A stretch of DNA of 64,000 nt from a phage. The stretch is taken from NCBI GenBank assembly GCA_012690745.1, contig GCA_012690745.1_4086.1. One strand, written 5' to 3'. Positions 13,995 to 48,410 of the stretch are shown here, in pieces. A program made the position numbers and the translations under genes. The notes beneath the pieces are model-generated. The model was not told the DNA's origin, ran no database searches, and worked only from the letters and a program-made list of their open reading frames with translations. How positions within the stretch are numbered: position 1 is the first letter of the stretch; the number at the start of each line of letters is the position of its first letter.

Positions 13995-14001
13995 ACGAAA
14001 A

Positions 14002-14028
14002 GGGAGAACTAATGTTCTCCCTTTTTTT
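14002..14028. terminator. bidirectional intrinsic terminator between convergent genes
   Basis: GGGAGAAC-taat-GTTCTCCC followed by TTTTTTT on plus; A/T run on the other side as well. Confidence 0.75.
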
Positions 14029-14029
14029 A

Positions 14030-15994
14030 TTATCTAATTGTTACCAATGTTCTTCCGTCGAAACGTACATCAGGAGTTGAAGGTATACTAAACACTACGT
14101 TAGTGCCGTTAAACGTAACGCTATCGACCTCAACACGAGTATAGACACCAGGACTAACCTGTTCCTGTATCTCTGCTGTGACGATGTTTGAGGCTGTTAC
14201 AGTAAGGGTGTAGTAGTTACCACTTAATACCCAAGATGAAATGGTAAAAGCATCGGTTCTCACTGAACCTGAACCAATCGGAACCCATTGACCTTGAACT
14301 TTTTGCATTGAAGTACGCTCGGTATTTGAGTATGCAATCATACCATCAACGCCAACAGAGTTATCAATAGTTGCTAGTACTGGTAATTGGATACCATATC
14401 TATTAAAACGTGTTCTTATAGTTCCATTATCATAGATACTTACATCAGCATAATTACCCATTGATAGTTTTAAATCAGAACTAACTAATTGGATTGTACT
14501 TTGATTAGTAGTACTTTCTAATGTAATTATACCATTAGCTAATAGATTTATATTTTTAAATTTATTAGTTGTTCCATTGAAATTAGTGTTTGCTGTAAAC
14601 GTACTAACTCCATTAACTGTAATTGTATCTGATGCAGCATCGCCTAATATGGTATTACCTTGAATGTTCAAATTACCACTAGCAGTGATATTACTAGCTG
14701 ATGTATCACCAGTCAATGTGCTTGTACCATCAACCACAATATTACCATGAAACGCACTTTCACCATTTTTAAATTCAACTTGTACTTTATTCATTGAACT
14801 AAATGAAATAATATTACTACTAGCACTTAGTCCAACATTAGTATTGGTTGCATTATCAAATCTTAGTACTGGGGTTGATGCTGGGGTTGAAGTTGTTTGG
14901 TATAATGTTAATGTTGAATTATTAATTCTAATACGTTCAGTTCCCGCAGTACTGAAACCAATTGCATCATCTGCTGGATGAAACATACCAGTATTAGCGT
15001 CTGACCATTTTGCAGGATCATTACCTGGGTTATTGGTTGGATCAAATGGATTGTTATTAAATGTCAATGCTGGTGCTGCTGCACTACCATAGACCACACC
15101 AAAACGCCCTGAGCCGCTTGTTCCATCATTATACATGGAATCACCAGTTCTACGTAAACACTCAATCACAACGTTATCTATGGATGTTTGAACGGTCCCT
15201 GCGTTTGTCCTAAATTGACGATGATTTGCAATCATTACAGTATTGTCATATAATACTGAAGCAGCGGAAATGCTTGTTCTTGACTGGCGTAGACGTATGT
15301 TTTTATCTTCAGTTATAATAATCCAATCACCATCTGATAGTGCGGTTTGGTTCATTGGAACACCTGAAGCAAATGGTTTGGTTAAGTCAGCATCTGTTGC
15401 TAAATTTTTAAGACCATCATGACCAGTACTAGGAATAGATGCAGGAATAATTCTAGCGAAAGCGTATGTTACTAGTTTAGCACCAGATATATTTGGATTA
15501 GAGTCAACATAATATAAAATTTCAATCCAATTACCTTGTCCAGTTGGATTTGTAGGTGTAAATGTAACAGGACTTGTTTGTGGATTATTTGCTTCATAAT
15601 GGGCTTGTGCGGCATCCATAATACCACGAACAACATAATAATCACCATTTAGTGATGCTGCTGGTGCTGGTAGTGGTGTTTGTGCTAAAGGTGGATCAAT
15701 ATCATCTGGGATAGGATTGTATGTACCAACAAACTGTAAACCACTAGTTACTGAATCTGGTAATTGGGAAGTAAGAAGTTTACCATTTGCATCTAAGTTT
15801 GCAAAGCGGCGATATGCCATAGTACCATCTTCAAAATCCAGAACACCTTCAAATGATTTCCATTCCTTATTGTATCTAATCATCCCTGATCTTATTACAT
15901 CAGCGGTTTCTTTTGATGGTGCTTTCGGTAACTCTAAAAAAGATTTACTATCAATAATTACACCACCATCACCTCTAATTCGATTTATACTCAT
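14030..15994 (-). CDS. tail fibre / receptor-binding protein
   Basis: 654 aa, Thr/Ser/Asn/Gly-rich beta-rich composition, N-terminal GMIRYN..W..FEG-type fibre motif, C-terminal variable region. Confidence 0.6.
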   Translation of the reverse strand: MSINRIRGDGGVIIDSKSFLELPKAPSKETADVIRSGMIRYNKEWKSFEGVLDFEDGTMAYRRFANLDANGKLLTSQLPDSVTSGLQFVGTYNPIPDDIDPPLAQTPLPAPAASLNGDYYVVRGIMDAAQAHYEANNPQTSPVTFTPTNPTGQGNWIEILYYVDSNPNISGAKLVTYAFARIIPASIPSTGHDGLKNLATDADLTKPFASGVPMNQTALSDGDWIIITEDKNIRLRQSRTSISAASVLYDNTVMIANHRQFRTNAGTVQTSIDNVVIECLRRTGDSMYNDGTSGSGRFGVVYGSAAAPALTFNNNPFDPTNNPGNDPAKWSDANTGMFHPADDAIGFSTAGTERIRINNSTLTLYQTTSTPASTPVLRFDNATNTNVGLSASSNIISFSSMNKVQVEFKNGESAFHGNIVVDGTSTLTGDTSASNITASGNLNIQGNTILGDAASDTITVNGVSTFTANTNFNGTTNKFKNINLLANGIITLESTTNQSTIQLVSSDLKLSMGNYADVSIYDNGTIRTRFNRYGIQLPVLATIDNSVGVDGMIAYSNTERTSMQKVQGQWVPIGSGSVRTDAFTISSWVLSGNYYTLTVTASNIVTAEIQEQVSPGVYTRVEVDSVTFNGTNVVFSIPSTPDVRFDGRTLVTIR

Positions 15995-16044: not shown

Positions 16045-16078
16045 AGAAAAGGCCAAGCATAGGCTTGACCTTAAAAAA
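16045..16078 (-). terminator. intrinsic terminator (minus strand) after ORF 16079-16858
   Basis: Minus-strand AAGGTCAAGC-ctat-GCTTGGCCTT followed by TTCTTTT. Confidence 0.55.
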
Positions 16079-16858
16079 TTAACGTATACGTTCAGGAATA
16101 TCAACACCTTCATATACCCAAGTTGCAGCTTGTTGTGCCTTATAAATTGCATCAGGATCTAAATCATCAACTGCATCAATTGCTGCACACTGATTGTCAC
16201 ATTCTGTAAACAATTGCTCAATCATAGCAAAGGCTCCAGTGTATAGTTGTGTCATTTCAGTAGCAGATAATTTTACAATTGCGTCATCAAGAAAAATAGA
16301 AACACTTTCAGAACCTGAAGTGACTTGTGTATAGTAATTAAGAAGCATTTGACGACCAGACATATCAGTACTGTAACGATGACCATTGAACATATAACCA
16401 GAATTCATACGATTTGTACGTTCTGATATAGTTCTTGCTTTTAAATCAACTTTAACATCTGCTATTGGCATATCAATATAATGATATGTTTTAAGAACAG
16501 TTAGTGCTTTATATTCTTCGGTAGCGTCTTCTAAAAATTCAACAATAGGTTGATTTTCATCTTTTAATTTAATAAACTCCAACGGTTGTTCAATAGCATT
16601 AACATTTCCAACATTTTTATACACTAACCACCAAAAACCTTCTTCTTTTCTAACAGCATCATTAGGTTCTACTGGGGAACCATCTTTACTTGAAATACCA
16701 TAAAGAGTTCTAATATCACTATAAAGATAACGATAGGTTTGTGGATCTTCTGGTGTTGCACCAGGACGTTCTTTAAGTCCTTTTACACCAATTGGATTGG
16801 AAATAATGTTTCCCAATTCATAATTTTCTTTTGAATTTCCTTTCACATATGTGAACAT
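16079..16858 (-). CDS. hypothetical protein (possible fibre assembly/accessory protein by position)
   Basis: 259-aa ORF between the giant fibre gene and the 654-aa fibre gene; ATG confirmed at 16858. Confidence 0.45.
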   Translation of the reverse strand: MFTYVKGNSKENYELGNIISNPIGVKGLKERPGATPEDPQTYRYLYSDIRTLYGISSKDGSPVEPNDAVRKEEGFWWLVYKNVGNVNAIEQPLEFIKLKDENQPIVEFLEDATEEYKALTVLKTYHYIDMPIADVKVDLKARTISERTNRMNSGYMFNGHRYSTDMSGRQMLLNYYTQVTSGSESVSIFLDDAIVKLSATEMTQLYTGAFAMIEQLFTECDNQCAAIDAVDDLDPDAIYKAQQAATWVYEGVDIPERIR

Positions 16859-16922: not shown

Positions 16923-19900
16923 TTAAGCAGTACGTTGTGCAATAAACATATCTGTTACTGGACTCACACCGTCATAAATGACTTGGTAGATAGTTACAGA
17001 GTTTGCAGTTTTGTTCAGTGTGCCATCAACAACCGCATAAGTACCATCAGTAGTAAAGTTTCTATTACCTGTTGCATCTTGTTTCACATAAATGTATACT
17101 GAAGATGCTTTACCACCACCGATTAGACCAGTGATTGGTGCTAGAGTGGTATCTTGATCTAGAGTGATAAAGTATACGTTGCTAGTACCGTCTGGGGTCC
17201 AAGTACCAGTTGGTGCGATAACAGAAGAAGTTACTTGATTAGGAATAACATCATATTTTTTAGTAGTTACTGTTGTAGTAGTTAGGTCAGCATTAGTAGT
17301 TGTTAATTGACCAGTTACAGTTACATCTTTATCAAATACTGCATTTTCTTTGAAAGAAGATGTTGCATTGACAGTTAATGTATCAGCAGCAGCGTCACCT
17401 AAAACAACACTACCATTTGCAGTCATTAAACCAGTAACAGTTAAAGTACCACCGATTGTTGCTGCTCCAGTAACAGATGCACTAGCAAGTGTTGCTGCAC
17501 CAGAAGTAGTAATGGTAGTTACTGAAGTTGCTGCTAGGGTTGCAGTACCTGTTGCAGAAATATCACCACCAACAGTTAGGTTACCAGAAGTAATTCCAAC
17601 GGTTCCAGTAATGTTAGCACCACTTGACATTGTTACTGCACCACCAAATGAACCAGTAGTAGTTACTTCAAGGGTGTTCCCTTTTAGTAGACCAGTTGCA
17701 GTAATACTTGTACCTGCGGTAATACTAGTACCAGCAGCAACACTGTTGGTTGCAGTTAATGATTTAACAGCCACGTCAGAGTTTGCTTGGTTTAGTGTTG
17801 CGTTAAGTAGACCAGTTACTGTAAAGTTACCGTTGTTAACTACGTTACCATTGATTGTTAAGTTGTTGTTTTGTGAACCAACATCACCAATAGTTGCTGA
17901 TTTGGAAATCAACTCTGCACCAGAAGTAATATTACCCGCTGCACTAATAGTGTCCGCCGCAACAACTGCATAAGGTTCAATTGTTTGACCACTAACGTCA
18001 ATATCAGCGTTGATACCACCATCTACACGCAAGGAGCCAGCAATGTAAGTATTAGGGAAAATCTGAACTGTCTCTGGTTGATCGCCAATTTTAGTACCGA
18101 TAATAACATCAGCACCAGTTTTAACTGCACCAGAGGTTGTTAGAGAACCTAAAGTTGTAGCACCAGTTACACCTAATGTACCACCAATTGTTGCGTTATT
18201 AGTAACTGCTAACGCAGCACCTTCACCATTAAGAGCGATTGATGGAGCAGATACTGCACCAGTTACGCCTAATGTGCCACCAATTGTTGCGTTGCCATCT
18301 GAATGTAGAGTTGTAGCTACAGAAAGACTGTTAGCAACTACATCAGTACTAGCTAAATCCAATGCACCTGGGGTTAATGTACCAGTAATGTTAACATTAT
18401 TACCAAAGGTCGCTGCACCAGTCACATCTAGTGTAGTACTAAATGTACCAGATGTTGCAGAGATTGCACCTGAATCTAGTGATCCAACAGTTGCTTTACC
18501 AGTTACACCTAAAGTTCCACCAACAGTTCCATTTGTGGTTACATCCAATGTACCAGTACTTAGTTCTTGTGCGGTTACCTTACCGGATGCAGTAACAGTT
18601 GAAGTGGAAACACCACCAGTTAGAGTACTAGCACCAGTAACACTTAATGTGGTTGCCGCAGTTACGCTATTCACACTAAGATCAGCACCGGATAAGTCCA
18701 AACCACCTTCAGGAACAAATACACCCTTAACAGTTAGTTTTTGTACTGTACTATCACCTGTTACATCCAATGTAGAAGCAGTTAAACCACCATTCATACT
18801 TGCTGCACCAGTAACACCTAGTGTAGTGGTTACAGTAGCACTATTAAGTGTTGAGCTACCAGAAATATTAGCACTAGAAGCAGTAATAGTTCCAGAATCA
18901 ACTTGTATACCACCAGCAACAACCTGAATTCCACCAGCATTAACTGTTAGTTTACCAGCAGTATTCAATGTATTTGAAACTGTTGTTGCACCAGTTAAAG
19001 TTGTAGTGCCAGTTACACCTAAGTTACCAGAAATAGATGGACTACCTGTAATGTTACCAGTAGTTAGTATCAAATCAGTACCTACGGTAGTGGAGCCAGT
19101 ACTTTCTAGTGTTACACCGACGATGTTTGCAGAACTTAGGTTAATAGTACCATCAACAGTTAAGTTACCTTGAACGGTTGCATCACCTAGAGAAGTTAAT
19201 GTCTTCACAGACACATCAGTTGTGCTAAGATCAATAACACCCGCAGTTAGTGTTCCAGATACTGCTAAATTACCAGTAATCGCGGTATTTTTAGTAATGG
19301 ATACATTTTCTGCCGCTGAAGTAATAGAACCAACAGTAAGTACACCACCAACAGTTGCGTTATTAGTTACATTTAGAGCAGTTCCAACACCAGATAGTGT
19401 TGCTGACCCACCAGTAATTGCACCTGAGATTGAAGCTGTTGCTGCTGAAACATCACCAGAAACTACTGCATTTGTTGCATTTAGAGCAGACACTGTAACT
19501 TCAGTACTTTGAACTTTAGGTAGAACGTTGATACCTTCTGCACTACTAACTGTAATAATACCAGTACTTGTTAGAGATTTAACAGATACATCAGCACCAC
19601 TTAAATCAACTGTACCAGAAACAACAAGATCTCCACCAATATTTGCTCCAGCGGTAGTAGTAATGGATTTTGCACTTACATCAGTTGTGCTCAAATCAAT
19701 TGCACCTGGTGTTACTGTACCAGAAACTGTTAGGTCACCAGTAATAGATGTATTATTGGAAATAGATACACCATCAACGTTACTAATTGTTGGGGTTTCT
19801 ACAGAAACTGCTTTAACTTTACCTGAAGAAGTTACGTCAGCTACGGTAGATGCACCAGTAACATTCAAATTAGTAATATTTGCAGTTGTTGAACCAAGGG

Positions 19901-22448
19901 TTGCAATAGTTGCATCAGTACTTTGAAGTTTAGGTAGAACACTACTAATTGTGGATTCATTACTAACAATTGCACCAGTACTAGTTAAAGATTTGACAGT
20001 AACATCAGCCGTAGTAAGATCTACTGTACCATTAACAGTTAGGTTACCACCAATAGTTGCACCAGCAGTAGTAGTAATGGATTTAGCATTAACATCAGTT
20101 GTTGCTAGATCGATAGAGCCTGGAATAACTGCACCAGTAACAGTTAGGTCACCAGTTACATTTGTATTATTGGAAATAGTGACACCACTTGCATTTGAAA
20201 TGGTTGGGGTAACCAACGATGCAGTTGTAGTTTCACCAGTTACAGTTAAAGTTGACCCAACTAGAACAGATGAGCTTGAGTAAATTGTACCCAAATTAGC
20301 AGATCCGGTAACAGTTATATCATCAGCATTAACAGTAGTTGCCGTTATGGTAGTACTATTAAGTACTGGAAGTACGTTAGCATTAACAAGATCATTACTT
20401 TTAACAATACCAGAAGTAGTTAATGATTTAACATTAAGGTCGGCTGCTGATAAATCAAAAGAGCCTTGAACTACTAAATCACCACCAATAGTTGCACCAG
20501 CAGTAGTAGTGATTGATTTAGCATTAATATCGGTAGTGCTCAAGTCTAGAGAACCAACAGTTAAGCTACCAGTAATATCAACATTTTCTGTAAAGTTAGT
20601 ATTACCACTAATAGTTGGTGCAGTCAGAGTTGTTGCACTAATATTAGTACCGTTAATTGTTTGCCCACTTACAGTTCCACTCGCAGTGATAGTAGGGGCC
20701 GTTACTTCAGTAGATGCACTAATTGTTGGTGCAGATACAGAAGTTGTACCAGTAATAGAACCAGAACTTACTGAACCAGCGGATAATGCACCAGAAAGAG
20801 TTGCAGTTGTACCAGCAATATCACCAGTAACAGTTAGTTTAGCACCCACGGTAGTGTTACCAGTACTTTCAAGTGTTGCACCTTTAATATTTGCTGCCGC
20901 GACAACAGAATTAGGTGTTAGATCCTGCCCACTAACATCAACAGTTAGTCCAGTTACTGTTCCAGTAAATTCAACATCATTAAGAATTGCTTTACCACCA
21001 ACTTGTAGGAATGGTGTACCTGGAGCTTGTGTTTCGTTACCAGTAATAGTTAGGTAATCTAGTTTGTTTAGACCGTTACCAGTAATACCATAAGTGGAAA
21101 GAGAAGCGTTACCGAAAGTTGCTGTTTTAAGAACGTTCAATGTAGAAGGAGAAACGACTTCTGATTGAACTTCGTTAGGTAGAATAACTGTTGGGCGTTG
21201 ACCTGGTGCAGTATATCCAAAACCTAGTTTCACTGCCGCATCTTGACTATTTTGACCTAAGCTGATAGCTTTAAAGGATGCAGTACTGTTATAACCAGTA
21301 ATATTAGAACCAAGAGTAACACCACCAACTAATGAAGTTACACCAGTAACGTTCAAAGATACTGCATTAATATCGTCTAGTTGGAACGTTCCACCAAGAA
21401 GACCAGAAACATTAATGTTATTAAAATTAGCAGTACCAGTACTTTCGATATTTGGAATAGTTGCAGTTCCGGTTACTTCAAAGTCAGCAACTTTAGTTTT
21501 TCCTTTTTGAACTTCTAATAGTGGTGTGTCTGGTGATTGTGTATTGTTACCAGAAACTGTTAGATAATCTAATTTGTTTAGACCATTACCAGTAATACCA
21601 TAAGAAGATAATGACGCATTACCAAAAGAAGCAGAGGTCAATACTGTCAAGTTTGCAGGTGACATTAGCTCGGACTGAATTTCGTTTTGTAGAATAACAG
21701 TTGGGCGTTTACCAGGAGCAGTGTAAGGGAAGCTTAATCTGAAGGTTTGTGATTCAGAGTTAGAACCAATACGAATGTCTTTAAAAGTAGCAGTACTGTT
21801 AATACCAGTTACGTTAGCACCGAAAGTTACTGCACCTTGTTGGTTAGATGCACCAGTAACGTTCAATGTTACTGCATTTAAGTCAGATAGATTAAACTCA
21901 CCACCAAGTGTACCACTAATTGTCACATCGTTAAATGTAGCAGTACCAGTACTACTAATATCTGTTGTACTTACATTAGTAATTTCTGCGGTATTAGCAG
22001 TAATTTTATCAAATGCAGCAGTAGTCCCAACATCAGCAGTAATATTACCTTTAAATGCTGTTGTTTCAGCAACTTCTAAGTTTTTAACTTTAGTTGCTTG
22101 TAGAGTGGTTGTACCAGCAGTTTGTGTAAAATCAGAACCAACTGATACAGTACCGTTAAAGGTAGCGTTTGAATTAATTGTTGCTGTATCAGACCCGACA
22201 ACTGCACTACCGATTGTAGTATTACCCTCAACACCAAGACCACCAGAAAGTGTTGCTTTGCCACCTACATCTAAAGTAGATGTAATGTTGGCAGTTGATG
22301 ATTCAATGGCAGTAAAAGTTGCATTTGCAAAAGTTACAGTACCATTTACAGTTAGGTTATTGTTGAAAACAGCATTTCCTTTGACTAAAAGATCCTTACC
22401 AACCGTACCAGCACCAGTAATATCTAAGTCAGTTTTTATTGAGTACAT
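16923..22448 (-). CDS. giant repeat-containing tail fibre / adhesin-like protein (1841 aa)
   Basis: Continuous ORF, Thr/Gly/Ser/Val-rich. Two ~170-aa tandem units (aa ~152-495) and about three and a half ~140-aa tandem units (aa ~620-1110). Low stop-codon content generates spurious antisense ORFs. Confidence 0.75.
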   Translation of the reverse strand: MYSIKTDLDITGAGTVGKDLLVKGNAVFNNNLTVNGTVTFANATFTAIESSTANITSTLDVGGKATLSGGLGVEGNTTIGSAVVGSDTATINSNATFNGTVSVGSDFTQTAGTTTLQATKVKNLEVAETTAFKGNITADVGTTAAFDKITANTAEITNVSTTDISSTGTATFNDVTISGTLGGEFNLSDLNAVTLNVTGASNQQGAVTFGANVTGINSTATFKDIRIGSNSESQTFRLSFPYTAPGKRPTVILQNEIQSELMSPANLTVLTSASFGNASLSSYGITGNGLNKLDYLTVSGNNTQSPDTPLLEVQKGKTKVADFEVTGTATIPNIESTGTANFNNINVSGLLGGTFQLDDINAVSLNVTGVTSLVGGVTLGSNITGYNSTASFKAISLGQNSQDAAVKLGFGYTAPGQRPTVILPNEVQSEVVSPSTLNVLKTATFGNASLSTYGITGNGLNKLDYLTITGNETQAPGTPFLQVGGKAILNDVEFTGTVTGLTVDVSGQDLTPNSVVAAANIKGATLESTGNTTVGAKLTVTGDIAGTTATLSGALSAGSVSSGSITGTTSVSAPTISASTEVTAPTITASGTVSGQTINGTNISATTLTAPTISGNTNFTENVDITGSLTVGSLDLSTTDINAKSITTTAGATIGGDLVVQGSFDLSAADLNVKSLTTSGIVKSNDLVNANVLPVLNSTTITATTVNADDITVTGSANLGTIYSSSSVLVGSTLTVTGETTTASLVTPTISNASGVTISNNTNVTGDLTVTGAVIPGSIDLATTDVNAKSITTTAGATIGGNLTVNGTVDLTTADVTVKSLTSTGAIVSNESTISSVLPKLQSTDATIATLGSTTANITNLNVTGASTVADVTSSGKVKAVSVETPTISNVDGVSISNNTSITGDLTVSGTVTPGAIDLSTTDVSAKSITTTAGANIGGDLVVSGTVDLSGADVSVKSLTSTGIITVSSAEGINVLPKVQSTEVTVSALNATNAVVSGDVSAATASISGAITGGSATLSGVGTALNVTNNATVGGVLTVGSITSAAENVSITKNTAITGNLAVSGTLTAGVIDLSTTDVSVKTLTSLGDATVQGNLTVDGTINLSSANIVGVTLESTGSTTVGTDLILTTGNITGSPSISGNLGVTGTTTLTGATTVSNTLNTAGKLTVNAGGIQVVAGGIQVDSGTITASSANISGSSTLNSATVTTTLGVTGAASMNGGLTASTLDVTGDSTVQKLTVKGVFVPEGGLDLSGADLSVNSVTAATTLSVTGASTLTGGVSTSTVTASGKVTAQELSTGTLDVTTNGTVGGTLGVTGKATVGSLDSGAISATSGTFSTTLDVTGAATFGNNVNITGTLTPGALDLASTDVVANSLSVATTLHSDGNATIGGTLGVTGAVSAPSIALNGEGAALAVTNNATIGGTLGVTGATTLGSLTTSGAVKTGADVIIGTKIGDQPETVQIFPNTYIAGSLRVDGGINADIDVSGQTIEPYAVVAADTISAAGNITSGAELISKSATIGDVGSQNNNLTINGNVVNNGNFTVTGLLNATLNQANSDVAVKSLTATNSVAAGTSITAGTSITATGLLKGNTLEVTTTGSFGGAVTMSSGANITGTVGITSGNLTVGGDISATGTATLAATSVTTITTSGAATLASASVTGAATIGGTLTVTGLMTANGSVVLGDAAADTLTVNATSSFKENAVFDKDVTVTGQLTTTNADLTTTTVTTKKYDVIPNQVTSSVIAPTGTWTPDGTSNVYFITLDQDTTLAPITGLIGGGKASSVYIYVKQDATGNRNFTTDGTYAVVDGTLNKTANSVTIYQVIYDGVSPVTDMFIAQRTA
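19121..20591 (-). repeat. intragenic tandem repeats (about 3.5 units of ~420 bp) in the giant fibre gene
   Basis: Repeated protein module G(S/A)(L/I)DL.TTD(I/V)(N/S)AKSITTTAGA(T/N)IGG.L.V.G..DL..AD..VKSLT(T/S)(S/T)G; also visible as near-identical antisense ORFs 19528-19926 and 19951-20283. Confidence 0.8.
20966..21995 (-). repeat. intragenic tandem duplication (2 units of ~510 bp) in the giant fibre gene
   Basis: Protein units ...GGEFNLSDLNAVTLNVTGAS...FPYTAPGKRPTVILQNEIQSE...SSYGITGNGLNKLDYLTVSGN... and ...GGTFQLDDINAVSLNVTGVT...GYTAPGQRPTVILPNEVQSE...STYGITGNGLNKLDYLTITGN... Confidence 0.8.
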
Positions 22449-22544
22449 TTATACCCTCCATTATAACCTTGTTAATATGTATATATTTAGTTTTATTATG
22501 CTGTTATCCAACAATTAATATGTTATTTGACAAAAGCAAATATA

Positions 22545-22587
22545 ATAAAAACCAGACTTATTTAGAACAAGTCTGGTTAATTTTTTT
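22545..22587 (-). terminator. intrinsic terminator (minus strand) after ORF 22586-23482
   Basis: AACCAGACTT...AAGTCTGGTT stem with T-runs on both strands. Confidence 0.55.
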
Positions 22588-23482
22588 ACTTACCAGAGAT
22601 GACAATCTTACCACTGAAAGAAATATCAGAAGTGAAGATTACATCACCAGTACTACTAATTTGTGTATCAGTCACTACCAATTCAAATGGAGATGACGAA
22701 ACACTCCCAGGTGTTTTATTTGCATAAATTGAAATATACAAATTATCTGGTGTTTGATTGTGTTCAGATGCAGGAATAGTGATTGTAAAATCACCATCAC
22801 TAGAAACCCAATCTGCTTGGTTTACCAATTTACTATAAGGTACTGTCATTGTTGTTGCTCCTATAATGTTTACTTTAACACTTGCATAATCTGTGATTTG
22901 ACCAATCACATCAATTGTTATATCCCCAATACCACTAACTGTTACTGTGGTTTGGAATACTGATTCCAATGCAACATTACCTGGGTCACCTTGTAGTTGG
23001 ATCATAATATCAGAACCTCTACCATGAACTGATTCTGGTAGTGTGTAAGTATAATGATCAGTAGTATCTGGCACTAATGTAAATGCAGAAACAGGAACTA
23101 TTTCAGTAGTTACATATGAGCTATCAGTCCCAGGTGAGCTACCTTTAAATGGTTTCCAAATACCAAGATCTTTAATATAAATTTGAAGAACATTAGTACT
23201 ATCAACCAAAAAGTAAACGTCACCATCTAGACCGATCGAATCGGATGGTGCTGTTGTTCCACGTAAGATACCAGAACTACCACCACCACTGTGTGCGTTT
23301 AAATATCCCAATGTAACCAAGTGTGTGTTTGCAGTTGGTTCACCTGCTGAAATTGGAAGAAGTTGTGTTCCTGAGTAGTTTTGAATTTGCACAACACTAC
23401 CATTTGTGGTAATCTGTGCACCATTCTTCCCAAGAATGAAGGACTTCTTCATGGTTCCTTCTAAATTAGAAAAAACTGCCAT
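22586..23482 (-). CDS. tail fibre/spike protein with N-terminal anchor shared with ORF 23499-25640
   Basis: 298 aa; N-terminus MAVFSNLEGTMKKSFILGKNGAQ closely matches MAVFSNFEGTMQPKFILGKKGAS of the upstream gene. Confidence 0.55.
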   Translation of the reverse strand: MAVFSNLEGTMKKSFILGKNGAQITTNGSVVQIQNYSGTQLLPISAGEPTANTHLVTLGYLNAHSGGGSSGILRGTTAPSDSIGLDGDVYFLVDSTNVLQIYIKDLGIWKPFKGSSPGTDSSYVTTEIVPVSAFTLVPDTTDHYTYTLPESVHGRGSDIMIQLQGDPGNVALESVFQTTVTVSGIGDITIDVIGQITDYASVKVNIIGATTMTVPYSKLVNQADWVSSDGDFTITIPASEHNQTPDNLYISIYANKTPGSVSSSPFELVVTDTQISSTGDVIFTSDISFSGKIVISGK

Positions 23483-23498
23483 TTTAATATAATCTCCT

Positions 23499-25640
23499 TT
23501 ATGGTAGGGTTATGTAAGTTACGGGTTGGGCAGCTTTTAATGCTGCACCAGCGGCAGTTGCTGTTATGATAGGATCTGCAATATCAATTCTATATACGTT
23601 GTTTACAACATACACTGCACGAGTTATATACGTTCTCAAATCACCACCATTTTCACCAGCACCGGATATAATGATCTCAGTACCAGCAGCTTTTGCATAT
23701 TGGTTTTCACCCCATGACACACCCAATGCTTCTATGTATGTTTGTCCTGCTACCGTTTGTCTAATTGTGTCATATTTTCCGAAAAAAGAACCACCAACAG
23801 TTACAATATATTTTCCACCCGATTGTTTATGAATAATCGTGCCTTCAGAGAAATAGCGTCCCCCAGGAAAAGTATCGTATGGAATATAATATTGCTCAAC
23901 TACAGGTATCAGTACTGGGCCACGGTGTCCTGTACCATCGATTGCAGTTGTAACTTTAAAGTTATTAGATGATTGGTCTATTCTGTCTACATACATTTTA
24001 GAAAAACTATATTTTGAAACATTACAATCATCTTGAACAACACAGTTAGTCCAATTAGTATAAGTATATTTAGAGCGAGTATAGATACCACCACCTTCGC
24101 CTTCGGTAGAGAGGTGTTGACCAATTACATCTAATTCTTTAGTTCTAATATCACTAAATTTAGATGATGATGGCAAACCACGCCAAAGGATTTTAGAACA
24201 GGTGATATTGCTCAATTCTGTATTATTTAACCAATTATCAGAACCGGAAGTATAAACAAGTATAGAAGACTCTGGAATATAGAGATTAGAAATTTTAAAG
24301 TTTCTAGGTGGTCCAGCAAAACGACCAGAAGTTACACCCCAGTTTATTGAAACCATTCTATTTGTGATAGAAGGATCATTAAGCAAATGACCAGTCAACC
24401 CATCAATAATGAATTCTTTCGAACCATAAGTTATAACACCAGCAGTGGTTAATCCAGTACCAACAGAAACTAAAGATGATGGATAAACTTCATTATTAAG
24501 TATTTTAAAGTCCATTCCTAATTCAACGTGGATACATTGTCTAACATTATATAGTCTGTTATTTTTAATAACAAAGTTTCTGACATATTGTGTATCTGGT
24601 GCATCTAAACCATAAGGACCAGAACCAGCAACGCCAATACCAATGCCCCAGTTTGAAAGTGGGATTGGAGCGTTAGAACCATCAACGTTTTCAATTACGT
24701 TTCCTTCAATCACAAAACCATCAGGATAATGTGAGTTAATTACGTTTAGTTCAATTGCATCACCATATATATCATGTATGTGGTTATATGAATATCTACC
24801 AACCTTCATTTTCTCACCAGTACCTTGTTGAAGAACACCATACTTACATTGGGTCATTTCATTAAAGCAAAAATCTATTGTTCCTGGTTGTGTCATACCT
24901 TGCATTAAAAATGCAGCAGTACTTGTGATGTTTATAAATTTATTAAAATAAAACTTACCATCGCCACCGAAGAATTTTAAATAACATCCAGTAAGTGTTG
25001 CAAATTGTATTTGGGAATTAATAACGGATACCATAGTACCACCATTACCAGTAATAGTTCCCCCAAACCAAGTTACATCTTCCAGGTATATTGCAGTTTT
25101 GATACGGTAATTACCACCAGCCTGAATTTGGATTTTATTTTCTTTAGCATAAGCAGCACATAAATTTACAGCAGCAGTGTCATCAGTTTCGCCATCACCT
25201 TTAGCACCAAATTCTTCTGGTGTTATATAAAACTGGGCCTGTTGAACTGTACCTCCAGTAATAAGTCCGATGAAATCGCCACCATTTTTACTGGATATAA
25301 CTTTTTTATTAATGTATAATGATTTTACCCATGTACCATTACTTTTTGCAAAAATATCAACAATACCATCTTCATCAATTTGAAAATACGTATTATTGTT
25401 CTTTCCTACATCATCGGTAGGGGGTACAACACCAAATAATGCATTAGGGTTATCTTCAAGATATTTTACGTTAACTGCTGAATTAGGGTCAGATGAAGTT
25501 CCTACCTTCAGTGGTAGGAACTGTTCTCCTAGATAATCTTTTATAGAAACTGAATCATTGATAAAATTTATTGAAGCACCTTTTTTCCCCAATATGAATT
25601 TGGGCTGCATAGTTCCTTCAAAATTAGAAAATACTGCCAT
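23499..25640 (-). CDS. tail spike / receptor-binding protein (shared N-terminal anchor, large variable body)
   Basis: 713 aa; conserved N-terminal ~25 aa shared with 22586-23482; Gly/Asn/Thr-rich body. Any enzymatic (depolymerase) role is speculative. Confidence 0.55.
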   Translation of the reverse strand: MAVFSNFEGTMQPKFILGKKGASINFINDSVSIKDYLGEQFLPLKVGTSSDPNSAVNVKYLEDNPNALFGVVPPTDDVGKNNNTYFQIDEDGIVDIFAKSNGTWVKSLYINKKVISSKNGGDFIGLITGGTVQQAQFYITPEEFGAKGDGETDDTAAVNLCAAYAKENKIQIQAGGNYRIKTAIYLEDVTWFGGTITGNGGTMVSVINSQIQFATLTGCYLKFFGGDGKFYFNKFINITSTAAFLMQGMTQPGTIDFCFNEMTQCKYGVLQQGTGEKMKVGRYSYNHIHDIYGDAIELNVINSHYPDGFVIEGNVIENVDGSNAPIPLSNWGIGIGVAGSGPYGLDAPDTQYVRNFVIKNNRLYNVRQCIHVELGMDFKILNNEVYPSSLVSVGTGLTTAGVITYGSKEFIIDGLTGHLLNDPSITNRMVSINWGVTSGRFAGPPRNFKISNLYIPESSILVYTSGSDNWLNNTELSNITCSKILWRGLPSSSKFSDIRTKELDVIGQHLSTEGEGGGIYTRSKYTYTNWTNCVVQDDCNVSKYSFSKMYVDRIDQSSNNFKVTTAIDGTGHRGPVLIPVVEQYYIPYDTFPGGRYFSEGTIIHKQSGGKYIVTVGGSFFGKYDTIRQTVAGQTYIEALGVSWGENQYAKAAGTEIIISGAGENGGDLRTYITRAVYVVNNVYRIDIADPIITATAAGAALKAAQPVTYITLP

Positions 25641-25654
25641 TATGACATCCTCCC

Positions 25655-26782
25655 TTAAATATTATCTTGAATCGGTTGGATAGGAGCTTGCCATGAAAGA
25701 GTACAAATAATTTCCATTTTTCCATAAGGACTGTTGTTAACAGAATCGTTGAATACACATGAAATAATTTCATCAACATCGGATGCTGCATGATTAGTTT
25801 CATTAACAATAAAACGCATCTGACGATTGATATCAAAGTAGGAAGTTGGTGCAATTACAGTCCCACCAATATCTTCTTGTGCTTCACCACCAAAACGTAC
25901 AAACATATCAGTTACAGGAAGAGAATAAGGTTGTATAACGTTTACATCAATATTAGAAACTACATATCCAGCAGGACACGTACCAATAACTAATAGTGCG
26001 TTAGTCCATGAGCTATCTATTGTATTTCTAATAGAAATTGTATCTTTACCTGGTGCACCTGGTTCGCCTTGTATACCTTGAATACCTTGCTGACCTTCTT
26101 TACCACGGAATAGAATACCCTCACTCCACTCTTTTGCAGGAGGGGTAGTTGTAGTTACTTCATCAACATAATATAGTTTTCCATCAGTGTTGTTATAAAA
26201 ACAATAATCAACTGGAAGATTTTCAATACTTGGAAATTGATCACCACTGCTATCAATATGGAAACGACCACGCGGACCTTGTTCACCACGGAAAGGTATA
26301 CCATCACTCCAAGTAGCAGTTACACTTTGATAGAAATAAAGTTTACCATCTTGAGTATTATAAAATGTATAGTTATCAAAAAGACCAGTTGTTGGGAAAG
26401 TAGTTCCAGCACTATCAATGTGGAACGGCTTACCCGCTTCACCCGTATCACCTTTACCAAACTCAACACTAATCCATGTACTTGTCGGATCTTGTGCATC
26501 ATTTGATTTAAAGTATAGAGTACTGGTATTGTTAGCCAAGCTTAAGTAGCACCACCCAAGTGGTTCACCAACTTTAAATTGTTCGGAAGGAATTTCAAAA
26601 CCAATCTCATTAGGATAAAAGTTTTTACCATTCTCGCCATTCTGTCCTACAACAAGACCTAAATCTTGAATTGTGTTATCTGCATAGGTTACAATTAAAT
26701 GCCCAGCACCATTAATAACTAGACTTTTGATGCCGGAGTTATTACATGAACCACTGGACCCATTGTTAAATGAAATTGTCAT
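25655..26782 (-). CDS. collagen-like repeat-containing tail fibre protein
   Basis: Gly-X-Y runs (GKEGQQGIQGIQGEPGAPGKD, GEQGPRGR, GQNGENGKN) interspersed with a repeated module FHIDS.G..FP...Y.FYN.DGKLY. ORF track starts at a TTG (26818); first ATG with RBS AAGGGAAA is at 26782. Confidence 0.65.
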   Translation of the reverse strand: MTISFNNGSSGSCNNSGIKSLVINGAGHLIVTYADNTIQDLGLVVGQNGENGKNFYPNEIGFEIPSEQFKVGEPLGWCYLSLANNTSTLYFKSNDAQDPTSTWISVEFGKGDTGEAGKPFHIDSAGTTFPTTGLFDNYTFYNTQDGKLYFYQSVTATWSDGIPFRGEQGPRGRFHIDSSGDQFPSIENLPVDYCFYNNTDGKLYYVDEVTTTTPPAKEWSEGILFRGKEGQQGIQGIQGEPGAPGKDTISIRNTIDSSWTNALLVIGTCPAGYVVSNIDVNVIQPYSLPVTDMFVRFGGEAQEDIGGTVIAPTSYFDINRQMRFIVNETNHAASDVDEIISCVFNDSVNNSPYGKMEIICTLSWQAPIQPIQDNI

Positions 26783-26892
26783 AATATTTCCCTTGTATGA
26801 GTTAATGTCATATACCAATATTTATCAGTACAAAATACATTTCGTTATCATTAATAAATAAATGAAAGTTCACTACTAAAAGGGCTTAAACA

Positions 26893-32532: not shown

Positions 32533-32572
32533 GTTTATTAATTAGAGTGACGTGAATCACATAGGAGAATAC

Positions 32573-34861
32573 ATGAATCTTACTCAATTGTTCAAAAAAA
32601 GCGACGAACTGGCAACATCTCTAGGTCATACATTCTTGACTATTGACCACGTAAGTGCCACAGTACTGACTATTGATAGCATCAAGAACGTATTTGAAGA
32701 TATGAACATTGATGCAGACAAACTGCACAACCGCCTGATGAACTATCTTAAAAATACAACAGTTCCACATGCACCAAAAAGTGTTAAAGATGAAGACGCG
32801 AATCGAACTTCACTTCTAGTGAATCGCGTTGTACATGAGCTTTCTAAAAAATCAGTTATTGAACAACTAAAAAGTGATGATTTTTCGATTGATGCATATT
32901 TTGTTCTATTCGAATGTCTGTCTTTCCCTAACACAGCACTAGAAGCTGCGTTAAAAGAAGAAGGTGTTAGCTGTACTGAAGCTGCACGTGCATTACAGAA
33001 ACACGTTGAGTCACTTGATAAGGGTATCAACTTACAAAGTATTAATGACGAACCGATTGGAGATAAAAAAGTGGCCCAACAGCAGCAATCATCTAAACAA
33101 AAAGGTTTGGAAGACTATACAACGAATCTAACTGCTCTTGCAAAAGAAGGCAAACTAGATCCTATGATTGGTCGCCAGAAAGAATTGTCTGCATTGATTG
33201 AGACTCTTGCTCGCAAAACCAAAAAGAATGCTATTCTCACTGGTGAAGCTGGTGTAGGTAAAACACAAATCATCGACGGACTTGCACAAGCTATTGCTGA
33301 TGGTAACGTACCTGAACACCTGAAAGACGTTGAAATTCTTTCACTAAATGTTGGTGCATTGACTGCTGGTACTAAGTATCGTGGTGAATTTGAAGAACGC
33401 ATCGACAATTTGCTAAAAGAACTAAAGAAACGTGAAAATACTATTGTTTTCATTGATGAAATTCATATTATGGTTGGGGCTGGTTCCGCAAGTAATGGTT
33501 CTATGGACATGAGCAATATGCTTAAGCCAGCACTTTCACGTGGTGAGATTCGTGTAATTGGTGCAACAACATATGATGAATATCGTAAAAATATCGAGAA
33601 AGATAGTGCATTAACTCGTCGTTTTATGAAAATTGACGTAGTTGAGCCGACAATTGATGAAACTCGTGCAATTGTTAATGGTTTGAAACCAACGTATGAA
33701 AAATTCCATAATGTTGAGTTCACATCTGATGCAATGGATGCTGTAATTTCTCTCAGTGATAAATTCCTGAAGAATAAGCACTTCCCAGATAAAGCAATTG
33801 ATCTAATGGATGCTGCTGCGGCTAAAGTTCGTTCACGTGACAACAATAGTAAGCTAATTACTGCCAATTTGATTCAAGAAGTTGTTGCTGGTATTGCCAA
33901 TTTGGATATCAACGTGGTTGCATGTACTGAAAGTGATCGTATGCGTAATCTACCAGATGCACTACGCTCACGTGTATACGGTCAAGAGGAAGCTATTCAA
34001 AAATTAGTTGATAACGTGATGGTAGCTCGTGCAGGACTGCGTGACAAATCTAGTGTTCAGGGTGCATTTATGTTTGTTGGACCATCTGGTACTGGTAAAA
34101 CAGAAATTACCAAAGCATTAGCAGACGCAACTGGTGCGGAACTCATTCGCTTTGATATGTCAGAATTTTCTCAAGAACATACTGTTTCTAAACTAATTGG
34201 TTCACCTCCAGGTTATGTTGGTCATGATTCTGGTAACGGTTTACTGTTGGATAAAATTGAGCAGTTCCCTAATGCAGTACTGTTACTTGATGAAATTGAA
34301 AAAGCAGATCGTAAAGTACTACTAACCTTCCTACAGGTTTTGGATGAAGGTCGTCTGACTGGTTCTCAAGGTAAAACTGTATATTTTAATAACGTAACTG
34401 TTATTATGACTACAAACCTTGGTGCGGCTGATTCAACAAAGCGTAGCATTGGTATGAGCGGTAGTGACACTGCACAGGACAAGGCAATTAAAGCATTCTT
34501 GCCACCAGAGTTTATTAACCGTATTGATAGTATCGTTACGTTTAAAGACCTAAGCAGTGAAGCTATTGACAGCATCATTGATAAGTTCATGGGTGGTTTG
34601 AATGAACAAGTCAAAGACCGTAATGTTAAAGTTACATTGACAAAAGCTGCACGTGAATGGCTTGCGAAAAATGGGGTAAAAGTTGGTATGGGTGCACGTC
34701 CAATGAAACGTACCATTGAACAAAACATTCGTGTACCACTAGCTAAAGAAATGTTGTGTGGTTCACTTGTGAATGGTGGTAACATTACATTTGATGTTAT
34801 TGATGGTAAAATCGGTATTAAGCCGAAACGTACCAAAGCTGTAGATAAAGCACTAGTATAA
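32573..34861 (+). CDS. ClpA/Hsp100-family AAA+ unfoldase (two nucleotide-binding domains, no ClpB-type middle domain)
   Basis: D1 Walker A GEAGVGKT and Walker B IVFIDEIH; D2 Walker A GPSGTGKT and Walker [10 protein letters not shown]; N-terminal Clp_N-like region. ORF track begins at a GTG (32552); ATG 32573 has RBS AGGAGA. Host-like codon usage. Confidence 0.85.
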
Positions 34862-34897: not shown

Positions 34898-37800
34898 TTA
34901 CTTAACTAATAATATATTTTTAATATCATTACCACTAACTTGTAGACTATCAGTGTATACTGAAAGATCTATAGTGTAACTATTTTGTGTGTAACGTTTT
35001 AACATATCATAATTACCTAAATTAATTCCATTGAAAGAATATGTGGTATTAAGTTTAAAATCATGTTCTGCACTATACATTACACCACGGAGTAAATTAT
35101 TTGCATTTCTAACTTCAACTTTTTCATATCCAATCGATATAATATCATTCATGTTCGCGGCTGAACCGGATAAAACATTATTTCTAATACTATAAGGACT
35201 TATTGATTTAGGTTGAGAAACATAGGTTGTATTTTCTTCACTAATGGTTGTGATGTTAGTAACAGTACCACCAACAACACCGATATACATACCGTCAACC
35301 ATTGGGAATCCATAAACCCATATCCCTTCATTATTTCTAAACGGTTGAATAACACTTGAATCATATTCGATAACGTTGATTTCTAAACTATCAGTCATTT
35401 TAGTTCTTGCCAATTCACTAAGAACTCCCGCACCCGTAATTGGTAAGTTATAACCGTTATCGATAGTAATTCCATCAACATCAAATATTTCATTGGAGAT
35501 TATCCAAACGTCAACGTCATCTGGTGTTATTCCGTCATTGTACTTACCACCATTTAAAGTAATATCGTAGAAAACATCATAATTAATTACATCAATGGTG
35601 TAATTTCTATTTTGTTCATACAATTTAATACCATTCTTGACAAATTCAGGGTCAGCAAATGTTCTAACACGAACAATGTTCAATGCTAGAGGCTGTACTG
35701 GCTCATTTTGTTGTGCAAGAGTGATGTTATCATAACGGAGAACTGCACCAGTACTCTCATCAATCAATTCAATCGTTTCCTTACCTGTATTTCTTACAGT
35801 GAATAGGATCGGAGTTGTATTGTTTTTGATGTTAGATACACGCAAGATTGTTTCCCATGTGTGATTTTGATATCTCACAAAATCTTCACCATCAGGAGTG
35901 AAAATCATCACCTTATCACCATCAGATAGGTCATTGTCAACTATTTCTGCTTCAGTTAAGCTATTAATAGATCTCACACGATAGAAATATTTTTCATCAA
36001 ACTTCGATGTTGTTTTATTAATATCATTTTCAATCTTAGCATATGAAGGAATACTTACAATTGCTTCTGTATGTTTATATGGATTGATAATTGCCATACC
36101 TTCAGTTTGATATCTGCTGTTATCACGTAATTGTACAAGAGATACATTGTCAAACCCATATCCATCAACTGTAAATCTAATTTGTCCAACATCACGCCCA
36201 GAAGGGTTTATGTCAGATATATCCACAATATAAGGATCAACTTCATCATCTTTAACTTCCCATTTTATTGAAGAAGTTTGAGATTCCAATGCTAGGTTAT
36301 CAAATGCATTCATATCATTGAAGTACTTAGCTTCAGTAATACTATCAAGTATATATTGATAATCAGAATACATTGGATTATTTTGATCTAGTGGTAAATC
36401 ATCAAGATTTATTTCAGCTAGTTCAACCATTTCACCATTTGTGATAAAATAATCTTCCATGAAATCATCAATACTTTGTTCATCAGGTATACTTTGATAT
36501 ACACCGTTAACATTTAAGTAAACATATTTTCGTGGAATCATTGTAATTGCATAGATATCAATTGGGGTCTTACTAAGAATCTCTTCAGCTTTTTCGTACT
36601 TATCAGTAGCGTCTTTGTCGAATAACCCTCTCATACCTGCTAATACGTGAATAGCATCAGTATAGAAACGGGTATCACCACCTACTTCATCATAACGATA
36701 AACATATACACCATACTCAACTTCAAGTTTAACTTTTACTTCATAGTCTGATGCGTCAGGATTTTTATCTTTAATTAATGAAATGTATTTTTGATACAAT
36801 TCACTGCTTATTTCAAAATATCCATAGTTATAATCATTACTAGAAGAAAAGCCTAATGGAAGTCTAGTACTAGGATTGTCATTATAAGTAAGTCCACTAA
36901 ATCCACATCCAACTTCATCGTGAATTTTCTCATCACTTATATCTTTATAAAGTTTCAAACGGTTTGCCAATGTGTTATACTGAACATATTGTCTAAGGTC
37001 AGTAAACATATCGTTATGCGTTGATTCTTTATAAACACGTTCCAATGTAGCAGTGAATTCATCAGTTGCTTCTAAATCTTCCGCATGGTCTTTATACCAC
37101 TGGTTAACGCCATATGCTGTTCCTAGTGTTACATCCAATTCTGGATAGTAGATTTGCATTTGATAAGCAATAAGAAGATCGAAAGTTTCTTCACTATATT
37201 CTGGGAAAGAATATATATAACGTTGTAATTCATAGTTACTAACAGCATCCTTTTCATTGGATTGATATTTGTTATTAACACTTACTAATTCATTTATGCT
37301 TGCCAAATCTTCATTTGGTTTACACTGAATATTATCATAATGCATAATAATATCAATTTCTTGGAATCTTCTATTTGGTGTAACGAAATCACTTGGTAGT
37401 GAACCTACCTGTTCCCATTTTTGGGTAATTTCATTAAATTGAGCGTACTCATAATCCCAAATATCTTTTTCAGTTTTGATCCAAGAACCGTCAACGAAAA
37501 TATATCCATTAGGATCTAAATCATTACATAGACCTTTTATTAAATCATCATCAGATGTCTTTTGCTCTATTTGTGAACGAATTTTAGTTCTATAAGGTTT
37601 AACTTCTTCAAAATATTCAACAATTTGATTAATCAAATTATCGTTTGAATAGTTTTGAACTAATGATTGTTCCAAACCAACAATATAGATATATGATGTT
37701 TTAAATACCCAATCCACAACACTTTGTTCAACATGTACATATTTGACCATATCAAAAACAATTTCGCTTTGATGTAAATCGAAAGAATTTTTGAGTAAAG

Positions 37801-47900: not shown

Positions 47901-48410
47901 AAATTGGTTAGTACTGACAAATGAACTGTTCATTACTAGAATGAAGTTTTCATACCAGTTAGCATCCATCGGGTCATTCCAACGAATGATTTTATCTTTT
48001 AATGATTCATTAAAACTATTACGAACATCTTGGTTTGTTTTAATTTCGGTTAATTTAGCAACTGCACGACCTGGATATGAGCGGCGTGGTGAGTAAGAAA
48101 TCATTTTAGCTAGTTTTAGTACTGATGCACGACGAGTTGCAGTATCTAAAAAGTTTTCACGTGTGTTCAAATCCATACGAAATGCCAAGTTCTGCCCTAG
48201 CATAGAAATCGTATCTAAAATAAAAATAAACTGGTCGTTTTCGATCCAGTCGTTGAATGAGTCTGGGTAAGTTGCACGTAGATAATCAATCATACTCTGA
48301 CGGATAGTATCGAAGTCATAAGCTGTAAGATTGATTTTATAAAAACTTTCATATACTTGAGTCCAATCCTCACCAGCGTATAAATTTGATTGCCTTTTTT
48401 GTTGTGACAT
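44949..48410 (-). CDS. baseplate wedge protein, baseplate-J/gp6-like (1153 aa)
   Basis: Large ORF immediately downstream of the gp25/GPW-like gene, the conserved W-J order of myovirus baseplates. Assignment rests mainly on synteny. Confidence 0.45.
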   Translation of the reverse strand: MSQQKRQSNLYAGEDWTQVYESFYKINLTAYDFDTIRQSMIDYLRATYPDSFNDWIENDQFIFILDTISMLGQNLAFRMDLNTRENFLDTATRRASVLKLAKMISYSPRRSYPGRAVAKLTEIKTNQDVRNSFNESLKDKIIRWNDPMDANWYENFILVMNSSFVSTNQFGNPVKRIDVNGVSRQLYRMNTIPMTAPSIPFIATVNGESMTFEVVNPDITSVGVEERHPEPQEQKYIVYQNDGNGFSSPNTGFFVYFVQGTLTYQDYQYAIREENRIQDINVDNINETDVWVQEINEDGIVRTKWTKVPSMESIAYNTVNRQLKTIFAVTTRDKDQITIKYPDSRSGVVPRGTFRVWYRVSNGKTYNIKTSEIQNKSVKYTYRTKTQSSYESSTLDIRFSLQYESDRAQSAETIEQIKARAPQMYYTQNRFVNGEDYNIAPLSLGNTVLKSKAINRIYSGQSRFIDINDPTGKYQNTDVFSDDGALYQENTQFNRSLLLPTTKTNASIVIDNIQPLIGENAVIQRYQAFPSNTIGIEIQQAWTPVYNSNYTTNTYGRILGSSGTVYGSYQVGTLIKFSNSGTTIWASVVSVLDNGFYVLSTSVPSGMQAIEYILPYRTRFNSVEVQAISAMLDKKTDFVIVHDKETTSWVPIEVSTNDDTIVYNGNEVLIIINVKYTAETWEFDANGIEYIFVGGEKVRFYFVSSKKITDISTGTVQSDKIEILSSNTTSSSNSGLTSNIDFQIYDTIQQENGYLDGSRVIVTSRKVDSNGIPLEPNQFKEIVPTWTGTDALKYGGILVFQENSDFTISVLSLPNDTFTLLDSSWSYTMEQALAEPNAYKRTEFVRNNAIRSTTLSGLYSKGSGFLVGFNYDGKYYFIEQTVGNNNDRLGQLISNLTYSDDTGTVSPELAFYRAINNMGTNADENQKLDYYGYKDVTSQYTVKTNARTSIDFHWKHYAPDDNRIDPSRTNLIDMYVLTNSYKTEVDVWLKNNAVGSIPKPPTSVELKDMFKDVEQKIVISDSIIWHSAEYLPLFGNSAAEDYKADFKVVKLPNSTMSDDEIRQNVIALTNEYFNVDNWDFGESFYYTDLCTYIHSQLGRHISTIVIVAQNPNSKFGSLFEIPSRSDQIFLSTASVENVQIVNSLAKSNINIGS

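Follow-up and report, generated by a model that had tools for sequence, protein, structure and literature searches.

A module map of the repeat-built tail fibre protein gp571 of Escherichia phage 121Q, with gain or loss of whole modules among related jumbo phages

The 64,000-nucleotide (nt) stretch of phage DNA analysed here (contig GCA_012690745.1_4086.1 of NCBI GenBank assembly GCA_012690745.1), hereafter the window, carries on its minus strand a gene of 1841 codons with an ATG start (16923..22448), which corresponds to gene 571 of Escherichia phage 121Q. We consider it probable that the product, gp571, is the long fibre protein of this phage, most likely a homotrimer of parallel chains with a thin shaft, rich in beta structure, that consists of large modules in series and evolves by gain and loss of whole modules. 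The map contains two A modules, three and a half B modules, one C module and a C-terminal domain of the type found in the long tail fibre of Pectobacterium phage phiTE, and comparison with relatives gives evidence that entire modules of 112 and 170 amino acids (aa) were gained or lost between near-identical jumbo phages. Both the gene and its role as a fibre had been recorded before; the module map, the third module, the unit-sized change of copy number between relatives and the phiTE link are added here. In a literature search, no paper describing the repeats of the gp571 family was found.

The 5526 nt of the fibre region are 100% identical to the DNA of phage 121Q and ~100% identical to that of G17, Sharanji, SHEFM2K, E9.1 and phAPEC6, all of which are members of Asteriusvirus, that is, Rak2-like jumbo myoviruses with genomes of ~350 kb. 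The RefSeq entry of 121Q describes gene 571 as 'tail fiber protein' with the note 'long tail fiber proximal subunit', and PHROG 4549 ('tail fiber protein') matches gp571 with E=9e-227. By tblastn, gp571 is 100% identical to phAPEC6 gp256, and gp256 was detected by mass spectrometry in purified phAPEC6 virions, where it is listed as 'tail fiber protein' (180.38 kDa, 15 unique peptides, 15.9% coverage; PMC7247149 Table 1). Thus, the gene is real and expressed, and its product is part of the particle. A ribosome-binding site, GGAGG, can be read on the minus strand 6 nt before the ATG (22455..22459). Together with the phiTE fibre as a relative in the PDB, these records bear out the sequence-only reading, which had called the product an 1841-aa fibre.

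Three kinds of module are found in gp571; all module coordinates refer to the minus strand. Alignment and a hidden Markov model (HMM) of the unit place the first A unit at aa 141-313 (21510..22028) and the second at aa 316-483 (21000..21503). The two copies share ~60-61% of residues over 173 aligned columns and 67% of their nucleotides. Their spacing is exactly 510 nt, and the DNA repeat finder aligns them in register from 21000 and 21510 over 216 nt at 75% identity. The B units follow at aa 610-746 (20211..20621), aa 747-884 (19797..20210) and aa 885-1040 (19329..19796), as defined by DNA repeats, sliding-window BLAST, the unit HMM and pairwise identity. A partial fourth copy at aa 1041-1123 (19080..19328) covers the first 83 of ~130 positions of the unit HMM profile. 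Pairwise identity among the B units, which are 138-155 aa long, is 46-59% in protein and 67-76% in DNA, and their unit-HMM domain E-values range from 5e-35 to 3e-55. Sliding-window BLAST gave E-values from 1e-24 to 6e-42, the best match being 64% identity over 107 aa (E=6e-42). In addition, each B unit contains an internal 30-aa doublet, 'xDLSxxDxxxKSxT...G.L.V.G'. The C unit (112 aa, aa 1310-1421; 18186..18521) is present once in 121Q and was delimited by comparison with relatives that hold a tandem duplicate of it.

Since gp571 is strongly biased in composition (T 18.9%, G 12.1%, S 10.6%, V 10.2%, A 10.0%) and shows weak similarities of 25-35% identity at many offsets, the repeats could in principle be a by-product of low complexity in T, G, S, V and A rather than true duplications. 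This explanation is refuted, and we give it practically no weight. The local alignment score of the two A units is 525, compared to 50 +/- 9 in 200 composition-preserving shuffles, which places it 52 standard deviations above them. The B-unit copies at 19088-20575 align in register and without gaps over 174-275 nt (60-75% identity) at fixed spacings of 435, 414 and 465 nt, and relatives differ by exactly one unit. Tandem Repeats Finder reported just two short arrays (18 and 21 nt) and missed the long ones, since their copies have diverged too far or their period lies above its maximum of 500 nt; a BLAST of the whole protein against itself returned the identity match alone, and sliding queries of 120 aa were used instead.

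The two repeat families had been noticed by eye in the sequence-only reading, and the DNA repeat finder, sliding BLAST and, for the A pair, the shuffles confirm the internal repetition. The pair of ~510-bp units placed at 20966-21995 is the same array as our A units with the phase shifted by ~33 nt, and the placement of about 3.5 units of ~420 bp at 19121-20591 is correct within 30-40 nt. That description was incomplete in one respect, namely that the C unit, single-copy here, went unnoticed. The high conservation at the protein level which it attributed to the repeats does not hold, given that protein identity is not above DNA identity (61% versus 67% for the A pair). For the same reason, the A and B repeats are taken as duplications that are old and diverged.

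Strong support for the modules as units of change comes from close relatives. The orthologues of phages UB (1959 aa) and JP4 (2129 aa) are 96% and 97% identical, respectively, to gp571 where aligned, and the alignment of the three proteins contains only three indels of at least 5 aa: a block of 170 aa, a block of 112 aa and one of 6 aa. The 170-aa block is in frame, specific to JP4 and equals a third A unit (88% DNA identity between the second and third A units of JP4). The 112-aa block, also in frame, is present in both UB and JP4 and equals a second C unit, the two copies being 92-93% identical in DNA. Two C units are also found in g316 of phage fEgEco12, and the unit HMM detects three A units in the metagenomic relatives P0002, P0011 and P0012. 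The orthologues of the more distant Pectobacterium phage CBB, Cronobacter phage GAP32 and Salmonella phage SE_PL hold two A units each, so the A duplication predates these genera. It is unlikely that the extra units stem from assembly error, since UB, JP4/CRJP21 and the metagenomic contigs are independent assemblies in agreement with each other. Gain or loss of unit length in frame fits unequal recombination or slippage between tandem copies, which would be the mechanism.

Changes of length are not spread evenly over the protein: the indel-rich stretches fall in the shaft, and three regions are kept best. The first is the N-terminal 60 aa (22269..22448; 60% identity in a conservation profile of 22 homologues), which has no match to Phage_phiTE_241_N and would be the end attached to the virion. 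The second is a junction behind the A array (aa 481-540, 20829..21008), with 63% identity across the family and the motif VDVSGQDLTPNSV, which aligns to residues 448-511 of the phiTE fibre. The third comprises the C-terminal ~160 aa (42-48%). Some Asteriusviruses differ in a further way. Phage fEgEco12 (PP777464.1, 3163-13967) has two tandem paralogous fibre genes, g317 (1644 aa) and g316 (1906 aa), ~54% identical, where 121Q has one. Phage vB_Ec-M-J also carries tandem fibre paralogues, with the first copy annotated as two coding sequences (1049 and 582 aa). Duplication therefore occurs at the level of the whole gene as well as of the module.

To relate gp571 to proteins of known structure, its sequence alone and two profiles of the family were compared with every PDB sequence; 9cuy_g, the 793-aa long tail fibre of phage phiTE, is the sole match. 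In phmmer, aa 1657-1838 of gp571 align to residues 612-792 of 9cuy_g (i-Evalue 4.7e-13; whole-sequence E 4.4e-30), and a C-terminal profile of 17 homologues matches residues 650-793 with E=7.4e-45. The corresponding region of the gene is 16935..17480. PF26209 is precomputed on 23 of 25 homologues, and a neighbourhood look-up gives its name as Phage_phiTE_241_C. Similarity extends into the shaft, where the second A unit is homologous to residues 176-352 of the phiTE fibre (profile E=1e-54). By contrast, neither phmmer nor the profiles aligned gp571 to residues 1-175 of 9cuy_g, the N-terminal baseplate part, and PF26208 (Phage_phiTE_241_N) is carried by only the two most distant homologues, P0024 and P0025. 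Judged by these alignments, gp571 belongs to the phiTE gp241-C family by its C-terminal and not its N-terminal domain, and has the distal two-thirds of the phiTE fibre design without its baseplate-binding N-domain. Few proteins make up the module family: among 1.84 billion representative proteins, a profile search returned only 150 with E<=1e-3 and 24 with E<=1e-30. The shorter ones (~480-1100 aa) mostly have one A unit at about residues 170-350, as in phiTE.

Annotation of this family is inconsistent. GenBank records label the orthologues 'long tail fiber proximal subunit', 'autotransporter', 'flagellar hook-length control protein', 'YadA domain protein', 'beta strand repeat-containing protein' or 'hypothetical protein'. 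Pfam and NCBIfam searches of gp571 gave no significant match, and labels of the T4 gp34, YadA/autotransporter or bactofilin kind find no support in the Pfam and PDB searches. The Pfam domains of YadA heads, stalks and anchors and of autotransporters are absent from gp571 even at E<=10. No match to T4 gp34 was obtained at E<=1 with either the single sequence or the two profiles over all PDB chains, nor in Pfam; fragments of gp34 have been crystallised (PMC5537660), so its sequence is expected among the chains searched. Homology of gp571 to gp34 is thus not demonstrable, and the gp34-like label traces to a 'putative' note on GAP32_220. As for the earlier description of the repeats as the mark of an adhesin or a long-fibre shaft, the fibre part stands and membership of an adhesin family does not, YadA and autotransporter Pfam matches being absent.

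Structure prediction of one unit had been proposed as a check in the sequence-only reading. With AlphaFold2 (AF2), two segments were modelled as single chains, aa 1300-1841 from an alignment of 17 rows and aa 316-884 from one of 29 rows; the mean predicted local distance difference test (pLDDT) score is ~62 in each. The modelled shaft, including the A, B and C units, is almost devoid of regular secondary structure, with a single 4-residue helix in the model of aa 316-884. Only the last ~100 aa (aa ~1739-1839) are confidently predicted, as a compact beta domain with pLDDT of 82-93. Foldseek against the PDB gave nothing significant (best E=0.39); against BFVD, the C-terminal domain of ~105 aa superposes at 2.6-3.8 Å on many phage 'tail fiber' C-termini and on phiTE gp241. 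In phiTE, the long tail fibre is a trimer in cryo-electron microscopy (cryo-EM), with residues 14-171 modelled, and the remainder is predicted by AlphaFold3 to be a 51-nm extended beta-helix with flexible regions (PMC11972413). A low-confidence shaft in monomer models is consistent with, though not proof of, strands that pair between chains, as they would in an intertwined trimer.

The shaft might alternatively be a beta-solenoid of the bactofilin or autotransporter-passenger type, in which each chain folds alone, in place of an intertwined trimer. Hydrophobic residues along the gp571 shaft recur every 6, 12 and 18 positions (a periodicity that we also count in favour of the trimeric fibre), weak Pfam bactofilin (PF04519) matches exist (15.2 bits, E=0.027 in gp571; 27.7 bits in the homologue P0007), and some GenBank records carry the autotransporter and YadA labels mentioned above. 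We regard a solenoid as quite improbable, considering that all bactofilin matches remain below the Pfam gathering threshold of 27.9 bits, that the AF2 monomer models formed no solenoid, that the only solved homologue, phiTE, is trimeric, and that YadA and autotransporter domains were not matched.

Taken together, the map and the homology suggest the following architecture for a parallel trimer. The conserved N-terminal ~60 aa would anchor it to the virion; two A modules, the conserved junction, the 3.5 B modules and further shaft including one C module would follow; and the compact phiTE gp241-type beta domain would form the distal end. The A, B and C modules would lengthen the shaft as interchangeable segments. 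Since tandem copies are still 67-93% identical in DNA, whole modules could be added or removed in frame by unequal homologous recombination or by slippage during replication, and related phages would therefore carry fibres of different length, the family spanning 1175 to 2120 aa. A first estimate of fibre length can be made by scaling. The T4 long fibre has ~2536 aa in series. It measures 145 nm (PMC5537660). Scaled from this fibre and from phiTE (793 aa for 51 nm), gp571 would form a fibre of ~105-120 nm.

Four observations weigh against this reading or parts of it. First, twelve isolates at least 98.9% identical in DNA all have a gene of 5526 nt, without any change in copy number, so module turnover is slow. 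The length variation by recombination proposed in the sequence-only reading thus has support on the evolutionary scale, in the form of unit-sized in-frame indels between relatives 96-97% identical, and none on the population scale. Second, the part of the phiTE fibre that is homologous to gp571, beyond residue 171, itself lies outside the resolved portion of the cryo-EM map (PMC11972413). Third, at 42-48% the C-terminal domain shows fairly high conservation among phages that infect Escherichia, Salmonella, Pectobacterium and Cronobacter, which is unusual for a receptor-binding tip. Given this conservation across phages of different hosts, one may speculate that the domain is a docking site for another component, for example the DUF4376 protein or the 654-aa protein encoded downstream, and does not bind the receptor itself. 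Fourth, the only baseplate fibres described from published micrographs of phAPEC6, CBB and fEgEco12 are short ones, not an obvious fit to a fibre of ~110 nm.

The same micrographs display, besides the six short baseplate fibres, long 'hairy' whiskers in rings along the sheath. This opens the possibility that gp571 and its orthologues (phAPEC6 gp256, CBB_226) are the ~120-nm whiskers that encircle the tail sheath of phAPEC6, CBB and fEgEco12 and may be present on the capsid as well. It would concern location and role and leave the modular anatomy unchanged. The papers on phAPEC6 and CBB leave the whisker proteins without assignment. In CBB, the hairs are 119 +/- 10 nm long and the baseplate fibres 28.6 nm; scaling by the phiTE or T4 fibre gives ~90-120 nm for proteins of 1553-1841 aa, which corresponds to the whiskers and not to the short fibres, although such a length estimate is an extrapolation. 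The CBB orthologue, CBB_226 (1553 aa), lies in the same synteny, the N-terminus of gp571 is free of the phiTE baseplate-binding domain PF26208, and Rak2, for which hairs were not described, has no CBB_226 homologue according to the CBB authors. On the other hand, GAP32 has an orthologue, yet hairs are unreported for it; the gene is located among receptor-binding genes (those for a pectate-lyase-like depolymerase and a 'tail protein'); and the phAPEC6 authors name gp256 a candidate baseplate fibre. On balance, we consider the whisker assignment unlikely. The same holds for its wider form, which includes Asteriusvirus and Mimasvirus jumbo phages and in which module copy number would set the length of the whisker.

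Opposite the fibre gene, seven ORFs (96-247 aa) lie on the plus strand between 17350 and 22518, all in one frame, which has 31 stops in 1841 codons, compared to 135 and 232 in the other two. In that frame, stops are possible only opposite sense TAN or CAN codons, and all 31 overlap Gln (17) or Tyr (13) codons or the stop of the fibre gene itself. Tyr, His and Gln make up 3.0% of the fibre, versus 10.6% in the other ORFs of the window. As stops arise only opposite these rare codons, the seven ORFs are a mechanical consequence of amino-acid composition and not genes, in agreement with the sequence-only reading, which had judged the long antisense ORFs artefacts. A comparable pattern is seen in the ClpA-like gene (32552-34861, plus strand), where one antisense frame has four stop-free runs of at least 90 codons (the longest 164), including the listed ORFs 33115-33453, 33463-33867 and 34366-34836; the same composition effect is probably responsible.

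Such by-products have entered the databases. In the fibre copy of phage PBECO4 (KC295538.1, 2931-7607, equivalent to ~17350-22518 on the plus strand of the window), three antisense ORFs (AGC35229-31) are annotated as 'hypothetical protein', and the fibre gene itself is unannotated. The tblastn match to PBECO4 stops ~640 nt before the end of the linear record. We considered a swapped C-terminus in this phage and dropped it, because a separate 515-aa PBECO4 protein, L7TJS0 ('YadA domain protein'), is 98% identical to the C-terminal region of the 121Q fibre and the match stops near the end of the record. Probably, the fibre gene is split or broken in that record and does not carry a different tip.

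The fibre gene is embedded in a minus-strand block. Upstream of it lie, in order, the genes of a 'tail protein' (25655-26818), of a pectate-lyase-like 'colanic acid-degrading' tailspike (23499-25640) and of a virion structural protein (22586-23482); downstream follow those of a 259-aa virion protein with DUF4376 (16079..16858) and of a 654-aa structural protein (14030-15994). The DUF4376 gene, assigned by domain search, annotation and synteny, is directly downstream of the fibre gene and probably co-transcribed with it. In CBB, GAP32 and fEgEco12, too, the fibre gene is followed in turn by those for the DUF4376 protein, the structural protein and thymidylate synthase; in SE_PL, synteny is kept for the genes immediately downstream of the fibre, the extent examined. 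Pfam, NCBIfam and PDB searches of the genes at 14030-15994, 16079-16858 and 22586-23482 identified DUF4376 only. A stretch of 38 aa in the 654-aa protein (aa 436-473) is 45% identical (E=9e-4) to fibre aa 1669-1706, just before the C-terminal domain; the two proteins may thus have a shaft or docking motif in common. Phage UB has a shorter gene (1368 nt) at the position of the 654-aa protein.

Consensus scans identified two terminator-like hairpins on the minus strand. One, with a 13-bp stem and a T run, separates the fibre gene from the gene upstream of it (22550..22578), and the other follows the DUF4376 gene (16049..16072). As these putative terminators bracket the fibre and DUF4376 genes, their positions suggest a two-gene transcription unit. 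A further hairpin with a 13-bp stem is located on the plus strand (13997-14026) between the convergent genes at 13994/14030. Upstream of the fibre gene, the T4 late-promoter motif TATAAATA does not occur; in the whole window this octamer occurs 3 times, versus 11 +/- 3 expected from shuffles. No tRNA genes were found in the window. Elsewhere in it, a 3333-aa ORF (34898-44899, minus strand) without similarity to the fibre adjoins an ORF of 1153 aa (44949-48410). By size and gene order only, the former is probably phAPEC6 gp245 (381.9 kDa, 17 peptides in the virion proteome, 'hypothetical protein'), and the latter matches the 131-kDa 'baseplate wedge' gp244.

The feature described here is an ordinary, already annotated phage fibre gene to which modest new detail has been added, and it works like other repeat-built fibre shafts. 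The map corrects the inconsistent annotation of the family, including the PBECO4 antisense ORFs entered as genes, and its defined module boundaries are usable for engineering fibres of set length. It also supports linking gp571 to the unexplained whiskers of these phages. Among known systems, the shaft pseudo-repeats of the adenovirus fibre and the neck/stalk repeats of BadA-type trimeric autotransporters differ in number between relatives and set fibre length. Tandem shaft repeats of varying number are what gp571 has in common with them; their sequences and folds are unrelated, the adenovirus units are much shorter (15 aa) and gp571 has no YadA-type Pfam matches. T4 gp34 is likewise a fibre shaft in function, a homotrimer in which long chains of 1289 aa run in parallel and intertwine, with a triple beta-helix and internal repeats; its repeats are of ~33-47 aa and mixed alpha-beta (PMC5537660), whereas the modules of 121Q are of 112-173 aa and beta. 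The closest known system is phiTE gp241 (PDB 9CUY/9MJN chain g), the only relative with any experimental structure, to which the jumbo-phage fibre is now tied. The two proteins share the A unit, the 'VDVSGxDIxPxSV' junction motif, shaft motifs and the C-terminal domain. They differ at the N-terminus, where phiTE has the helical/globular baseplate-binding domain PF26208 that 121Q is without, and in the number of modules: the 793-aa phiTE fibre has a single A unit, whereas that of 121Q, with two A, 3.5 B and one C unit, is 2.3 times longer.

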